Source: Squalus acanthias
Taxonomy: Eukaryota
Assembly: GCA_030390025.1 (NCBI GenBank)
Contig: CM059431.1
Coordinates: 94,614,001-94,678,000 of the forward strand
Length of the DNA: 64,000 nt
Direction of reading: 5' to 3'
The position numbers and the translations under genes are program-made. The number at the start of each line of letters is the position of its first letter. Position 1 is the first letter of the stretch. Below, one piece after another: positions 670-64,000 of the stretch. The notes beneath the pieces are model-generated. The model was not told where the DNA came from. It saw only the letters and a list, made by a program, of their open reading frames with translations, and did no database searches.

Positions 670-1180
670 GGGGGGAAAATTCAGTTGGTTTGCGCCTCCC
701 ATTAGCACCTTAAGGGGGTGCTAATGGGGCGCAAAGCAACTAGCGCCTGGGTGCGGCGATGTCTGCGCCGCTCGCGAAATCGACCAGACATTTTGTGGCG
801 GCGCTAAACAATACCACCCCGATCTCCTGCGCCCGCAGATCTTGACGTCATTCGAGCATGCAACGCCCTTGTGGTGCCCCGGACCGAATATTGAGTGGCA
901 CCTCCCTCCTTTCCGCCTGGCGCAAGCAATGACAGGTAGACTGGAACATTTCCCAGTCGGTGTGGGGCTGGGGGGGGCGCTATTTAAAGGCAGTCTCTTC
1001 CTGGCTTTTTCTGTGGTAGACATCTTTGCACCACTCATTCTGACAGAGAGAGAGATTCTGAGAGAGAGAAGGAGAAAGTTCTGCATAGAGTCGACGCTGT
1101 GTGAAGTAGTTTTGGCTACTGAGCATCACTTTGCAGGTACTTTTGTTTTTGACCTTCATTACTTTGATTGCCAAGAGACT

Positions 1181-3366
1181 ATGGGGGCTGCACTTATTGG
1201 GGGCGTCGTCCTGCGCCTGCAGATTCGGAGGCAACAGAGACGCAGAGAGAGAGTGGCAATCATGGCCAGACGGAATGGGCCAACAGGCCTCTGTACAGGA
1301 GACCTTACCCTCCCAGGTTATTTCGCCAACAATTGAGTGAGGAGGACATAAAAAACCTGCAAGGGGACATAGACAGGCTAAGTAAGTGGGCAGAGATTTG
1401 GCAGATGGAATACAACACTGGAAAGTGTGAGGTGATGCACTTTGGCAGGAAAAATCCTAGAGCAATTTATTATCTTAATGGCAAGAAACTGGAGAGTACT
1501 GAAGTGCAAAGGGATCTGGGGGTCCTGGTGCACGAAACTCAAAAGGTTAGTATGCAGGTGCAGCAAGTGATTAAGAAGGCAAATGGAATGTTGGCTTTCA
1601 TTGCTAGGGGGATAGAATATAAAAATAGGGAGGTATTGCTTCAGTTGTACAAGGTATTGGTGAGACCGCACCTGGAATACTGCATACAGTTTTGGTGTCC
1701 TTACTTAAGGAAAGACATCCTTGCTCTCGAGGCAGTGCAAAAAAGGTTCACTCGGTTAATCCCGGGGATGAGGGGGTGGTCATATGAGGAGAGGTTGGGT
1801 AGATTGGGACTCTACTCATTGGAGTTCAGAAGAATGAGAGGCGATCTTATTGAAACATATAAGATTGTGAAGGGGTTGGATCGGGTGGATGCGGGGAGGA
1901 TGTTCCCGATGACGGGTGAGACTAGAACTAGGGGACATAGTCTTAGAATAAGGGGCTGCTCTTTCAAAACTGAGATGAGGAGGAACTACTTCACTCAGAG
2001 GGTGGTAGGTCCATGGAATATGCTGCCACAAAAAGCTGTAGAAGCTACATCATTAAATAAATTTAAAACAGAAATAGACAGTTTCCTAGAAGTAAAGGGC
2101 ATTAAGGGTTACGGGGAGCGGGCAGGAATTTGGACATGAGTCTAGGTTCGGATCGGTCATAGCCCTGTGGGTAGTGGAGCGGGCCCAGGGACCGTGTAGC
2201 CTGATTCTGCTCCTATTTCGTGTGTGCAATTCTGTTAGATGCAGGAGATGGTTCTGTGATAGATAGTAGATTGGCGGTTAGGATCAGATCAGCCATGATC
2301 TTATTGAATGGCGGAGCAGGCTCGAGGGGCCGATTGGCCTACTCCTGCTCCTATTTCTTATGTTCTTATGTTCTCCTACATTAATTTGTCTGAGGAGCAG
2401 TGTTTGCGCAGGCTGCGCTTCAGCAAGGAGGTGGTCACTGAGCTCTGCCACCTGCTGCAGCCAGATCTGCAGCCTCAACTGAGGACCAGGACATCTCTGT
2501 CGGTGGCAGTGAAGGTCACAGTGGCTCTGAACTTTTATGCCACTGGCTCCTTTCAAGCAGCTATTGGGGACATCGCCAATATCTCCCAGTTCATGGTCCA
2601 TTGCTGCATCCGTCAGGTCACAAATGCCCTCTATAAAAGGAGACGCCAGTACATCTCTTTCCCGCTGACCCGGGCCAAACAGCATGAACGCGCATTGGGC
2701 TTTGCGAGGATAGCGGGCTTCCCCATGGTGCAGGGCCCCATTGACTGCGTGCATGTGGCATTGCGTGCACCGCATGAGAATGCAGAGGATTTCCGCAACT
2801 GCAAGGGGTTCCACTCTTTAAACGTCCAGTTGGTCTGTGACCACAGACAGCTGATACTCGCTGTCAATGCCCACTATCCTGGCAGCAGCCACGATGCTTT
2901 CATCCTGCGCCAGACTGCTGTGCCAGAACTTTTCCAGGCACCACATCAGCCAAGTGGTTGGCTCCTTTGGGACAGGGGTTATCCACTGTGCACCTGGCTG
3001 ATGACACTGCTCCGTAACCCCAACACCCCTGCCGAGCTGCGATACAACGAGAGCCATCTCGCCACCAGGAACATCGTTGAGCAGACAATCGGCGTGCTCA
3101 AGCAACGGTTCCGTTGTCTGGACCACTCAGGAGGAGCCCTGCAGTACTCGCCTGAGTGAGTCTCCCTCTTCATAGTTGTGTGCTGCATGCTGCATAACCT
3201 GGCAATCCTCAGGACCCAGCCAATGCCACCAGGCCTTGGAGCACCACCGGAGGAGGAGGAGGAAGAGGAGGAGGATGATCAGCAGCAGCACCAAGGCGGG
3301 AGGGAGGCCCACAATGTTGAAACTGCAAGGGCCGTCCGTCAATGGCTGATAGCAAGCTGCTTCTAG
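1181..3366 (+). pseudogene. Harbinger (HARBI1-like) DDE transposase, disrupted
   Basis: N-terminus at 1181-1334 (..RRPYPPRLFRQQ, frameshifted) resumes at ~2371 (FSYINLSEEQCLRRLRFSKE). Motifs IDCVH, GSSHDAFIL, DRGYP, RNIVEQTIGVLKQRFRCLD and CCMLHN are present. Lesions are a CR1 insertion and an in-frame TGA at 3157-3159. Confidence 0.92.
1335..2372 (+). mobile_element. 5'-truncated CR1 LINE (RT C-terminus and 3' UTR) inserted into the transposase
   Basis: ORF 1168..2139 switches to CR1 RT motifs (LQGDIDRL, RPHLEYC, RRMRGDLIETYK) and ends in a ...CTCCTATTTCTTATGTTCT tail. Confidence 0.93.
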
Positions 3367-3600
3367 GCCCCTGCTGAGGAAATGGCTTCTGCCATTGAGA
3401 ACAACATGAATGAAACCAACCCGCAACCCCTAAGCCGGCCAAGGCAGCAATGATTCCAAAGACCAAACATGTACACTTTGAATACAAAAACTTATTTATT
3501 TTACAAACTCTGTGTGTGTCATTTCCTCATGACAAACTAATAGAAAGAAACACAAAAAAACAGTCATTAACATAACTGGTTCTCACAACCTGGAGATAAT

Positions 3601-4361
3601 GGCCCAAAAATTCGGCCGAGAACGGGTGAGTACTAAGTGCGTACTCACCCGTATTCGTTCCCGAAGTGCCGGTTTCCTGCATGCACTGCGCATGCGCGGG
3701 AAACCGGCACTTCCGGTATGGTGAAGGGGGCGGTTCCTAAGTGAACCGCGTGCTCACTAGAGGCTGCGCGCACGCAGCACACTTAGGTTTTTTTTCAGGA
3801 TTCAACGCGAGGGTAAGTATGGAAGATTCTACACAAGTAAAAAGGAGGCGTAAGACCCCTTTTGAACAAGGTAAGTAGTTAATTAAGTATAATTTTTAAT
3901 TTTTTTCAACAGGTTTATCTTTTTTAGAGACTTTAAAGAAAGGTAAGTTTATTTTTATAACAATTTTTTAAAAATTTAATTATTTCAAAAATTTTAATTT
4001 TTGTTTAAAGTGGTTAATTTATTTAACTATAGTTATTTTATTAAGGTGATATTTTTTTTAATTTATTTGAGGTTTAGCTGTTCTTTTGGGGTCTCTTTCA
4101 ATTCACAGTTTTGACAGCTCTCCTGTCAAATCTATGAATGAAAGATGGTCTGCTGCCATTGGCTCTCCATGGCCCACGTGATCCCAGAGGTCGCATCGCA
4201 CTAACTGCGCCCCTGGGACACGCACACACTGCGCACCGGCACTAGGGAGAGGCCCAGGACCCAAAGTTCCTGTGGGCCCAAAACACAACGGCCGGCGCGG
4301 TGTGTGATATCGCACGCGATCCTTACCCCCGCGGCAAGCCTCCGAGTCAAATTTCTGGGCC
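3601..4361. mobile_element. Non-autonomous Harbinger-type MITE (GGCCC-TIR family)
   Basis: TIRs GGCCCAAAAATT / AATTTCTGGGCC and 3-bp TSD AAT (3598-3600, 4362-4364). Homologous to 53010-53753. Confidence 0.88.
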
Positions 4362-4441: not shown

Positions 4442-6312
4442 CTACTTTTTGCCCTTCGAGGGTGATCTCCTTCCATTGCGCACTTCCCCCCTTCCCACCC
4501 TCCTGCTCCTCCGTAATGGGGGCCCAGTTGCTGCAGCAAGGCTGGTGGAAGGCTGCTGATTGTCAGAACCCGAGACTGCAGATGCCCTTGAAGGACGGCC
4601 TCGACCAGCTCTGGGCCTGGAGGGCCCGGCTGCAGACTGCACCAACTCTGCATGGGCGGCAGCAGTCTGTCCTACAGGCGGTGGCAAGTGCAATGGGTAA
4701 GTGACAGTGGTGGCAGCAGGAATGCTGTCATCGTGAGAGAGGACAGCAACTCCCTGCTCGACCGACACACTGGCACGCCCACAGGGCAGCACATCAGCAT
4801 CCGGAGCAATCTGCTGGAGCACAGATTGCTGGCCTGCTGCGGCGCGGTGAGAGCCCCGGGGAAATGTGTCCGGACCAGCGACAATGACAGCAGTCAGTGC
4901 TTGCGTGGATTCAATCTGAGTCTGCATGAGAGCAGTCAGAGATGGGGTCACGGCAACCAGTGACTGAATTGCAGCACTAAGCATTTGCGTGGCATCCGCC
5001 TGTGCTACATCGAAGTGCTCCACCCTCCTTGCCAGTGATTCAATGCATTCGGGCACCCTTCCCACTGCACCCATGAGCTGAGTGTGCATGTCCACCGCCT
5101 GGGTGTTCATTTTAGCGATCAGCCGCTCCTCCTCTGCGTCCATTGCAGTAGGACTCGCTGGCCTACTCTCCCTCCGGGGAGAAGGCCCCCGAGCTTTCCT
5201 ACCCCCATCGCGTTGCTGCAGCCCGCTGGGTCCCGGAGCTTCACCCTCATCAGACCCTTCCCCCCTGCTCCCCTCCAGGGAAGGCGTGTTCCCAGTGTGG
5301 GCATGGGCTTCCTCGGGAGAGGGTGGCGCTGATGCTGCGGCTTCATCTTCCTCCTCGCCTGCAGCATCACTCCCACTGGGAGCTTGAGGGCCCGTCTCCT
5401 CAGCTGGTGAATCACCATCTGAAAGCAGGCAGGTACAAGAGTGGCTTTAGCGTGAGGACAGGGGGCAGTAAGGGAGGAATGAGTGCAGCGATTTAGTAAG
5501 TTGGATTGAAAGTGTCAAAGGCTGGTGTTGTGAGGGACAAGTGGAAGGAGAGAGGACAAAAAGGTGATGACCTTACCATTGCTGTCCAGAACGGGGTCGG
5601 CGTCTCCAGGGGCGACGGGACCGATCACCTGGCTTGCCACAATCCTGTGGACGCGCGCCTCAAGATCGCTGAGGGGTTGTAGCTGAGGCCGCCCTCCACC
5701 TGTCCGTTGCTGCTGTCTCCTATTATGAGATAGCTTGACCTGAACAAAAAGGACGGCTTCTGAATAAATATACAGCCATGGTCTTGCCTCATGTGCCTCC
5801 CATAATTGAATAGCCCTTACTGTATCCAGCCATGGTCTTGCCTGCTGTGCCTCCGATAGTTGAATAGCCCTTACTGTATGCAGCCATGGTCTTGTCTGAT
5901 GTGCCTCCCATAGGTGAATAGCCCTTACTGTATGCAAAGTGTGGAATGTGCGTGTGTGTTTCATGAGAGGGCAATAGGTGTTGGATGAGTGTTGGGCATT
6001 GGGGTTTTAAGACCCTCTGGCCATAGAGTGAGGTTAAGATGGAGGGATGGAGAGGTATTGAAAAAAGCCACTCACACTGACGCCCCGAGTGAGGTCGTTG
6101 AACTTTTTGCGACATTGAGTATGGGTCCTGGGCACCATGCTCCTGGAGTAGACGTGCTGAGCCACCTCCCTCCACACTCTTCTGTACTTGTGCGGCAAAG
6201 GCCTCCTGCCACTCTCAGAGTAGAGTATAGATCTTCTGCGCTCCACCGCGCCAACCAGAGCATCCAAGGCCCGCTCGCTGAAGCGCTGAGCTCGTTCTCT
6301 CACCCTCTCCAT
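4442..6312 (-). CDS. Harbinger Myb/SANT-like DNA-binding protein, 3 exons (6312-6076, 5739-5577, 5418-4442), 458 aa
   Basis: Exon 1 encodes RAQRFSERALDALV...W..VA...RT..QCRKKFNDL. Both introns are GT-AG with matching phases (0, then 1). The joined frame is open for 1377 nt and runs into ORF 4442..5143. Confidence 0.82.
5773..5934. repeat. 54-bp tandem repeat x3 in Myb gene intron 1
   Basis: CAGCCATGGTCTTG...GCCCTTACTGTAT units start at 5773, 5827 and 5881. Confidence 0.9.
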
Positions 6313-61889: not shown

Positions 61890-63380
61890 GGGAGTAATTT
61901 TAACCTCCAAAAACGGGTGGGTTTGGGTCGGGTGGGATGTTAAAATGTGAAAAATCTGAAACCCAAACCCAACCCACCTCGAACCCAACCAATTCCGATT
62001 TTAATGGAGGCGGGACGGGAGGCCAGGCAACCAACCCGATCCCAGGGAGCAGGTCGCTCATTTAAATATTATAATGAGGCTGCATGCCTCAGATTTTATC
62101 TCTCTTCCAGCTACAGTATAATGCTGACTGAAAGGAAGATGTAAGTGCCTTTCCAGCACTGCTTGTGGGCCAGGAGAAGCAGGAGTGCTTCTACCCCGGC
62201 CTTGCAAGCAAACCTGTTTCCCACTCCATGTGATTACCCCACCCCCAGCGATTGGACTTATCCCATGACTGGACCCCCTCGCTGATCACCAACCCACCCC
62301 GCACAATCACCGACCCACCCCGTGATCACCAACCCTCCCCCACTGTGATCACCGACCCCCCCCCCCCCCCGTGATCACCAACACCCCCCGTGATCACCGA
62401 CACCCCCCGCAATCACCGACCCCCCCGTGATCACCGACCCTCCCCCAATGTGATCACCGACCCCCCCGTGATCACCGACCCTCCCCCCCCGTGATCACCG
62501 ACCCCCCCCCGCAATCACCGACCCACCCCGTGATCACTGACCCTCCCCCCCGTGATCACCGACACCCCCGTGATCACCAACTGCCCCTGCAATCCCCGAC
62601 TCTCCCCGTGATCACCGACCCTCCCCCCGTGATCACCGACCCTCCCCCCCGTGATCACCGACACCCCCCGCAATCACCGACCCCCCCGTGATCACCGACC
62701 CCGCCCCGTGATCACCGAACCCCCCCGTGATCACCGACCCTGCCCCGTGATCACCGACTCTCCCCGTGATCACCGACACTCCCCGTGATCACCAACCCCC
62801 CCCCGTGATCACCGACCCCCCCGTGATCAACAACCCTCCCCCCGTGATCACCGAGCCCCCCGTGACTACCGACCCCGCCCCGTGATCACCAACTCTCCCC
62901 GTGATCACCGACACTCCCCGTGATCACCAACCCCCCCCGTGATCACCAACCACACCCGTGATCACCGACCCCCCCATGATCAACAACCCTCCCCCCCATT
63001 ATCACCGACCCCCCCCGTGATCACCGACCACCCCCGTGATCACCGACCCCCCCCGTGATCACCGACTCTCCCCGTGATCACCGACACTCCCCGTGATCAC
63101 CAACCCCCCCCCGTGATCACCGACCCCCCAGTGATCAACAACCCTCCCCCCATGATCACCGACCCCCCCGTGATCACCGACCCCGCCCCGTGATCACCGA
63201 CTCTCCCCGTGATCACCGACACTCCCCGTGATCACCAACCCCCCCCATGATCACCAACCCCCCCCCGTGATCACCGACCCCCCCCATTATCACCGACCCC
63301 CCCCGTGATCACCGACCCCCCCCCGTGATCACCGACCCCCCCCGTGATCACCGACCCCCCACATTATCACCGACCCCCCC
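61890..63380. mobile_element. Probable Harbinger-type non-autonomous element containing a VNTR, interrupted by the LTR element
   Basis: Starts GGGAGTAATTTTAACC, matching the reverse complement of GGTTAAAATTACCCCC at ~51277-51292. The other end is not in the window. Confidence 0.5.
62281..63380. repeat. C-rich ~18-21-bp minisatellite (CCCCCCGTGATCACCGA)
   Basis: Tandem units with a GTGATCAC core and variable C-runs. Confidence 0.95.
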
Positions 63381-64000
63381 TGTCAGAAATCGCAACTTCT
63401 ACAAGAAGTAACTCAGGAAGTACTACTGGGCGGCCAGCTGGGGCGCTGTCCGGGGAGTATAAATACTCGGGCGTGGGCCCACCTTGAACAGAGACAACCT
63501 GGAAACAGGAAGTTAGTGACGGCTAACTAGACCGCCATGCTTTGTTACAAGTCGATTAAAGCCTTGATTTATGTTCAACCAAGTGCGTAGTGAGTCTTTA
63601 TTACGTCAATTTAATCGACTTGGCATCGTCTCCACGCTTTGGGTGATTCGGAACAACCAGCTGCAACTCGAACCACAGAAGGGAACTAGGGCAAGAAACT
63701 GATCCACCATGGAGAAACTCATAGACCCGCTCGTCTCGACCTGGACCCGAATGCACCTGCGGCAGCGAAGGTATGGAAGCATTGGTTTTGTACCTTTAGC
63801 AACTTTCTTGAAGAATGTGGGGCGGATGCCCCTAATAAGTTACGAATGCTTATTAACTACGTGTCCCCTCATGTGTATGACTATATTGAGGACTGTATAG
63901 ACTACGACACTGCTGTCCAAATTTTACAGCAGCTATATGTCAAGTCCCCGAATGAAATCTTTGCTCGACACCTACTGGCCACAACTCGGCAGCAGCCTGG
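63381..64000 (+). mobile_element. LTR retrotransposon 5' end (Gypsy-like): LTR ~63381-63608 and frameshifted gag from 63709
   Basis: TG...CA termini, TATAAA at 63458 and ATTAAA at 63555. After a 1-nt shift the frame reads RPARLDLDPNAPAAAKVWKHW...NEIFARHLLATTRQQPG (gag-like). Confidence 0.8.

Follow-up and report, generated by a model that had tools for sequence, protein, structure and literature searches.

Element, LTRs and insertion site

The window analysed here is a 64,000-nt stretch of the Squalus acanthias genome (contig CM059431.1). Its last 620 bases are the 5′ end of an LTR retrotransposon, a decayed Ty3/gypsy copy, all features of which are given on the plus strand. The 5′ LTR occupies 63381-63608 (228 bp, TG...CA), and the second LTR copy lies beyond the window end. 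This 3′ LTR was found 4741 nt downstream, where positions 5124-5349 of locus L031 align to 63383-63608 at 95% identity. The pair differs at 11 of 226 aligned bases, none of them within 63548-63560. Because a TG common to both copies stands two bases upstream of the aligned part, the LTR was delimited as 63381-63608 and its 3′ copy as L031 5122-5349. The 3′ LTR stops at the equivalent of 63608, the end (...ACGTCA) that an earlier reading of the DNA, made from sequence only, had assigned to the 5′ LTR. A purine tract, AGGGAGGAAGAA, lies directly 5′ of the 3′ LTR.

The gag start is an ATG at 63709-63711; the coding region (63709-64000) runs off the window, and the frame of the window copy is shifted within the first codons. 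From L031 690 onwards, gag and protease are in open frame. Beyond the window the internal order is gag-PR-RT-RNase H-IN, the Ty3/gypsy order, with frames broken. Pfam matches were, in order, Asp_protease_2 (below the curated cut-off), RVT_1 (3.9e-23), RT_RNaseH and rve (1.1e-17). Among solved structures, the best RT relative was Ty3 (2.3e-31) in the Protein Data Bank, where Ty3 is the sole gypsy reference. A TG...CA LTR pair, a purine tract and the order PR, RT, RNase H, integrase were thus all found, as in members of Ty3/gypsy (Metaviridae). A first look at the 3.7-Gb genome yielded 1658 candidates for the window family; 40 were scored, and none fell below 94% identity to the query.

A C-rich satellite occupies 62274-63380; its 19-bp unit (about CCCCCCCGTGATCACCGAC) is present in 56 copies, and higher-order periods of 135 and 154 are also seen. 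The satellite abuts the 5′ side of the element and resumes at L031 5350 after the 3′ LTR, so the element was inserted into the array. CCCCC is present on both flanks, but as a target duplication it is weak evidence because the insertion sits in a C-rich satellite. Clean 5-bp duplications flank the relatives L067, L075, L101, L124 and L129, by our own reading of the flanks.

Complementary arms at the primer-binding position

Two segments, arm 1 at 63548-63560 (CAAGTCGATTAAA) and arm 2 at 63610-63622 (TTTAATCGACTTG), are exact reverse complements 49 nt apart. This perfect 13-nt complementarity, from which the sequence-only reading had started, was verified from the letters and by an inverted-repeat search, in which the arm pair was the sole inverted repeat of at least 8 nt within 63380-63720. 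Arm 1, the proposed self-primer, ends in ATTAAA (63555-63560), which may be a working poly(A) signal. It is followed at once by GCC (63561-63563), where a cut proposed by analogy with Tf1 (AAA|GCC) would free the primer 3′ end. Arm 2, the putative primer-binding site, is identical in 27 of 30 subfamily copies and co-varies with arm 1 as described below. A single unpaired A (63609), invariant in 60 of 60 copies, separates it from the LTR end. As had been noted before, no TGG follows the LTR directly; A63609 and then arm 2 stand in that place. The base directly 3′ of arm 2 (63623) is hypervariable between almost invariant neighbours.

RNA folding was applied to 63548-63640. The 93-nt segment was predicted to fold at -23.0 kcal/mol, against -14.3 ± 2.9 for shuffled sequences (z = -3.0; 1 of 200 shuffles as good), and the helix was found in the minimum-energy and centroid structures alike. 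Both folds also contained a predicted 9-bp U5 hairpin at 63585-63606, adjoining the primer-binding site. The same hairpin was predicted in a sister subfamily and is not clearly retained in L064, a copy of a second family. By our own estimate, a 13-mer within 3 nt of the LTR end would have a perfect complement in a 228-nt LTR about once in 100,000 cases. The arm complementarity is real and far beyond chance.

The window copy was compared with 29 other copies of its family (n = 30). At 63623 these carry A (17), C (6), G (3), T (2) or a gap (2). The base after arm 2 is A in 26 and G in 4 copies of the sister subfamily, and G in 62 and A in 38 of the first 100 second-family rows, counted by hand. 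A G at 63623, which makes TGG at 63621-63623, is therefore present in just 3 of 30 copies, and TGGCATCG (63621) is not a conserved tRNA site. The conserved TGG site of tRNA-primed elements was thus not found, and the sequences at the primer position vary among relatives. Arm 2 sequences differ from relative to relative and track each element's own LTR, a pattern not expected from conserved host tRNAs. The sequence-only reading had named two ways in which it could fail. The first, an LTR extending to ~63619 with TGGCATCG matching a tRNA 3′ end, was ruled out by the 3′ LTR end at 63608 and by the TGG count. The second, a complementarity lost in related elements, does not hold either, as the complementarity is conserved in sister subfamilies, in the second family and in distant relatives.

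Contigs from four other sequencing runs had in common a change of G63617 to A and a 4-nt loop deletion. An arm 2 with this change was found at 678 sites in the genome, as compared with 1 site for a control pattern read backwards. These sites define the sister subfamily; in 30 copies of it, sampled in genome order, C63553 was without exception T, matching the change of G63617 to A. A C-G pair has thus become U-A, and the 13-bp helix stays perfect. The loop of the sister subfamily is 45 nt, the 4-nt deletion being common to its members. Genome-wide, exact joint junction patterns (n = 673) included 1 incompatible combination (C/A) and 10 wobble-compatible ones (T/G); the first 100 of the 673 rows, counted by hand, comprised 93 T/A, 4 C/G, 3 T/G and no C/A. 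In the small subfamily of the window copy, T at 63553 (a G.U pair) was seen in 10 of 30 copies and A at 63617, which would clash as C.A if left uncompensated, in 1 of 30. The sole copy with A63617, L030, also carries the compensating T63553. Since copies within one genome share ancestry and are not independent, these counts amount to about one compensatory event plus a wobble intermediate.

A second, larger family with 6467 LTR ends shares the TATA block of the window family and is diverged elsewhere. Its copy L063 was reached through a single match to a guessed junction between the window and a loose end. The second-family helix is 12 bp, with arm 1 one base shorter. The arm 2 predicted from it was found: the junction pattern gave 3317 matches at up to 3 mismatches, a number that by our mismatch count also includes the window family. 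A joint pattern of both arms, with A required before arm 1, gave 271 matches and its control gave 0, so one base has been lost from each arm, in step. A search anchored on the downstream TCTCCAC returned 17 matches, mostly unrelated. The compensatory co-variation that was to be looked for across family copies is accordingly present, as the C-G to U-A exchange in the sister subfamily and as matched losses in the second family.

Two further observations were made on second-family loci. Four LTR ends lie on one strand at G000 C1:9332778-9348667 at intervals of ~5.3 kb, suggesting that elements are joined head to tail there and share LTRs. L064 has two successive reverse transcriptase family matches and no RNase H match within 747-3994, and may be rearranged or nested.

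Relatives in other animals

A search with the RT returned gag-pol proteins of ~1200 aa (about 1200-1230 aa) in crustaceans, cnidarians, a tunicate, a nematode, and sharks and rays. A chromodomain (PF00385) was present in none of the 120 listed relatives, according to precomputed domains, and a domain scan did not find PF00385 in the window copy or in L064, both of which are decayed. An alignment of 48 relatives with the window RT was made purely as a search query, and 80 metagenomic loci with an RT identity of 44-76% were retrieved. In relatives with both LTRs, the spacing is 3.8-4.2 kb and the LTRs are 127-290 bp. Where the 3′ LTR fixes the LTR end, the same layout recurs with different sequences: an LTR ending in ...CA, one base, and an arm complementary to the element's own LTR. 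In the closest metagenomic relative, L065, positions 1-184 are repeated at 3927-4110, and 184 nt of coding sequence stand at the contig ends. The contig is therefore circularly permuted around one LTR; it may represent a one-LTR circle, a tandem array or an assembly artefact.

Helices were sought in a blind scan of those loci, 43 of 80, whose upstream DNA was long enough. In 19 of the 43, the region 1388-1526 nt upstream of the RT anchor contains a perfect inverted repeat (12-18 nt, loop 21-66 nt); control windows of the same size contained such a repeat in 2 of 241 cases. A perfect helix of at least 12 nt was absent from the other 24 testable loci, many of which appeared by eye to be truncated or decayed. 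A looser scan, allowing G.U pairs and one mismatch, added one convincing case (L105, with two G.U pairs) and a weak one (L071), the remainder being noise-like. In L087 the perfect arm is kept solely in the 3′ LTR.

The scan yielded 18 distinct helices, which were aligned from their inner ends. A-T pairs fill positions 1-3 in 17-18 of 18. All 18 have G-C at position 10, with G in arm 1 (63551 in the window); this fixed G may be a recognition point or may simply reflect slow divergence. Positions 5-9 and 12 each show three to four Watson-Crick pair types. As the helices were picked for perfection, their 100% pairing is by construction, and the significance of the set rests on the 2 of 241 control windows. 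Arm 1 is followed by GCC in 8 and by ACC in 5 of the 19 relatives, and CAA precedes arm 2 in 14 of 19. Arm 2 starts one or two bases past the LTR-terminal CA. An ATG lies within 6 nt after arm 2 in 11 of 19 relatives, and in L075 and L098/L101 it opens gag, as judged by eye. With the ATG or gag abutting arm 2, no other primer site fits in the compact relatives.

Priming models and known systems

The reading that best explains these data is a Tf1-like, self-primed reverse transcription in a Ty3/gypsy lineage without a chromodomain, to which we assign a probability of about 0.8 from sequence comparison. The primer of Tf1 is released by RNase H from RNA of the element's own LTR (PMC7175516, PMC4600332, PMC10085805). 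All steps proposed here follow Tf1 of fission yeast by analogy. Arm 2 (63610-63622) would be the primer-binding site, and the primer would be the LTR segment 63548-63560 of the element's own RNA. The arms would pair in the genomic RNA, and the RNase H of the element would cut after ...AAA (63560|63561). The freed 3′ end would then be extended over the spacer A and the last 48 nt of the LTR (63608 to 63561). The short minus-strand DNA so made would be transferred to the RNA 3′ end, where the stretch from the cut site to the poly(A) site matches it. Finally, the plus strand would copy the RNA primer, and arm 2 would be rewritten from arm 1. The sequences themselves show where arm 2 lies, that the arms co-vary, that a tRNA-type site is missing and that relatives have no space for a second primer site; pairing in vivo, the cut and the primer role are what we infer from the analogy, and arm 1 may or may not form the RNA 5′ terminus.

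If arm 2 is rewritten in each cycle, the arms would stay perfectly complementary and the helix would have a sharp outer edge. Such an edge was observed: in three families the position after arm 2 varies strongly between nearly fixed neighbours. The variable base would be consistent with plus-strand synthesis that runs to the end of the RNA primer and there adds or mis-pairs a nucleotide, and also with the rewriting of arm 2 from arm 1.

Self-priming could use a primer at the RNA 5′ terminus or one inside the RNA, and the two sub-models stand roughly even. The distinction turns on the transcription start. A putative promoter element, TATAAATA, lies at 63458-63465, 90 nt upstream of arm 1, and is conserved in the second family at 89 nt; the caveat raised earlier, that the TATA box would put the start upstream of the paired segment, therefore stands. 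At ordinary promoter spacing, RNA would start ~60 nt before arm 1, which counts against the self-priming reading: a 60-nt 5′ tail on the primer would make the plus-strand jump awkward. In the internal sub-model, which is a form of the self-priming reading and not exclusive of it, transcription would begin ~30 nt past the TATA box (near 63488), arm 1 would lie ~60 nt inside the RNA, and its 5′ side would also be freed or trimmed. The near-identical TATA spacing in two families favours this sub-model, as do the TATA-block surroundings, which are the most widely shared part of the LTR, and two small hairpins predicted within 63488-63547. The block (63451-63492) is common to many diverged LTR families, and contigs from the four runs, made from other organisms, are about tenfold denser on it than on the rest of the LTR. 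Against the sub-model, the LTR of compact relatives extends just 92-106 nt upstream of arm 1, which could not accommodate both a promoter and a 60-nt leader, and in L134 and L085 a TATA-like motif, identified by eye, stands 31-32 nt ahead of arm 1. The variable base at the outer edge of arm 2 also fits a primer whose 5′ terminus is where the template ends. TATA positions are heterogeneous among relatives. Taken by itself, an internal primer is rated at slightly under even odds.

Small hairpins of different sequence are predicted just upstream of arm 1 in both families (63498-63528 in the window; about 250-290 in L064); if real, they would suggest that the stretch is transcribed. Contig ends at 63580 and 63608 were considered as transcript ends and rejected, since they resemble graph branch points.

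A second alternative retains the helix and changes its purpose. The helix would be a regulatory or structural RNA, masking the 5′ ATTAAA against early cutting or serving packaging or dimerisation, and some other primer would be used. In its favour, 10 of 18 helices have ATTAAA or AATAAA as the last bases of arm 1. Arm 2 is found only downstream of the 5′ LTR, which would leave the 3′ copy of the signal free, and a start set by the TATA box at 63458 would place the 5′ signal within the transcript, where it would need silencing. In the remaining 8 helices, however, arm 1 has no canonical signal: AATAAA or ATTAAA lies in the loop in 3 of 18 and is found in neither place in 5 of 18. Masking of a poly(A) signal is therefore not the common function. 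No other primer site is visible, an ATG lies very close to arm 2 in 11 of 19 relatives, and the start of arm 2, invariably one or two bases past the terminal CA, is at the place that defines a primer-binding site. A purely structural helix is for these reasons judged quite unlikely. Of the two possibilities left open by the sequence-only reading, self-priming and a hairpin masking the poly(A) signal, the former has the stronger support, as arm 2 lies at the primer site in every relative and compact relatives have no room for another, and masking as a general purpose is not upheld. In the window family, masking of ATTAAA in the 5′ copy may be an added or secondary role.

Priming by a tRNA or tRNA fragment, with TGGCATCG (63621) starting a tRNA site or arm 2 matching a tRNA interior in the manner of copia-type half-tRNAs, can appeal to the TGG of the window copy and to half-tRNA priming in other LTR elements (PMC6317226), but is highly improbable given that all four bases occur at 63623, that the sister subfamily has TATCG after a TTGA or TTGG, and that arm 2 varies among relatives with each element's own LTR.

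The self-priming reading can be extended, tentatively and with more doubt than confidence, to a general rule. A widespread Ty3/gypsy lineage of aquatic animals, lacking a chromodomain and possibly Mag C-like, would self-prime through a 12-18 bp helix, the primer strand of which would also serve many members as their poly(A) signal. At the cut site, AAA with GCC or ACC after it, together with the fixed G-C ten bases away, would be the recognition rule of RNase H, and the primer of the window family would be internal, ~60 nt after a TATA-driven start. An internal primer of that kind, if true, would set this self-priming apart from what is described for Tf1.

In the literature covered, self-priming is demonstrated only in Tf-type elements of fission yeast and is treated as a mark of one chromovirus group. 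The same geometry, with heavy co-variation, is now seen in a chromodomain-less lineage with relatives in sharks and rays, a tunicate, crustaceans, cnidarians and a nematode, and its junctions number hundreds to thousands in the 3.7-Gb genome. The literature searched contained no description of self-priming for Mag-type elements or for other animal gypsy elements that lack a chromodomain. If the self-priming reading is true, priming independent of tRNA would have a wider range in animals. It would bear on the idea, put forward in PMC3601003, that hairpin priming was the ancestor of tRNA priming. Such elements would escape host defences in which tRNA fragments are aimed at tRNA primer sites, a topic of PMC7472051, and would be missed or misjudged by annotation pipelines that require a tRNA site. 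The conserved context of the cut site and the variable base beside the primer site provide concrete, testable predictions.

Published accounts treat self-priming as established in Tf1 and Tf2, describe it as supported in Tj1, and predict it for the Tf1/sushi group, Tcn1 and TAR (PMC4600332, PMC10085805, PMC6317226). As in Tf1 and Tf2 of Schizosaccharomyces pombe, Tj1 and the Tf1/sushi chromoviruses, there is no tRNA site here, and the site after the LTR pairs with RNA of the element's own LTR. The three-duplex 'pretzel' of Tf1 (PMC10085805) was not found in the predicted folds, which consist of one long helix and a U5 hairpin, with no flanking duplexes. Unlike in Tf1/sushi elements, the helix of the present lineage is longer, at 12-18 bp, and in the window family stands 90 nt after a TATA box, and arm 1 has a 3′-terminal AAA, resembling a poly(A) signal, with GCC or ACC next to it. 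The absence of a chromodomain, from the listed relatives as from the two decayed copies scanned, is a further difference from the Tf1/sushi chromoviruses.

Mag elements are characterised by a single ORF and by size traits. The relatives resemble the Mag lineage (Mag, Jule, SURL / Mag C), a likeness by traits only, in their single gag-pol of ~1200-1230 aa and their LTRs of 127-290 bp. The Mag C training set of PMC3601003 (Tables 1 and 3) has a mean LTR of 174 bp and a 3′ LTR motif AYANAACA, which the ...TACAACA LTR ends of several relatives resemble. Mag-like elements of the Culex mosquito are described with sites complementary to tRNA-Leu or tRNA-Ser, and in one case tRNA-Arg (PMC3286476), unlike the elements described here.

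For chromoviruses of the Tcn1 clade and the plant copia element TAR, self-priming is inferred in PMC6317226 from the same sequence geometry. Those elements are plant or fungal, and chromovirus or copia, whereas the present ones are animal Ty3/gypsy elements without a chromodomain. Retroviruses, which prime with tRNA, have U5-IR and U5-leader stems that join the LTR to the surroundings of the primer site, and in HIV-1 a hairpin holds the 5′ poly(A) signal. Unlike these retroviral stems, of which the U5-IR is mentioned in PMC3601003 and PMC10085805, the helix described here occupies the primer-binding site itself.
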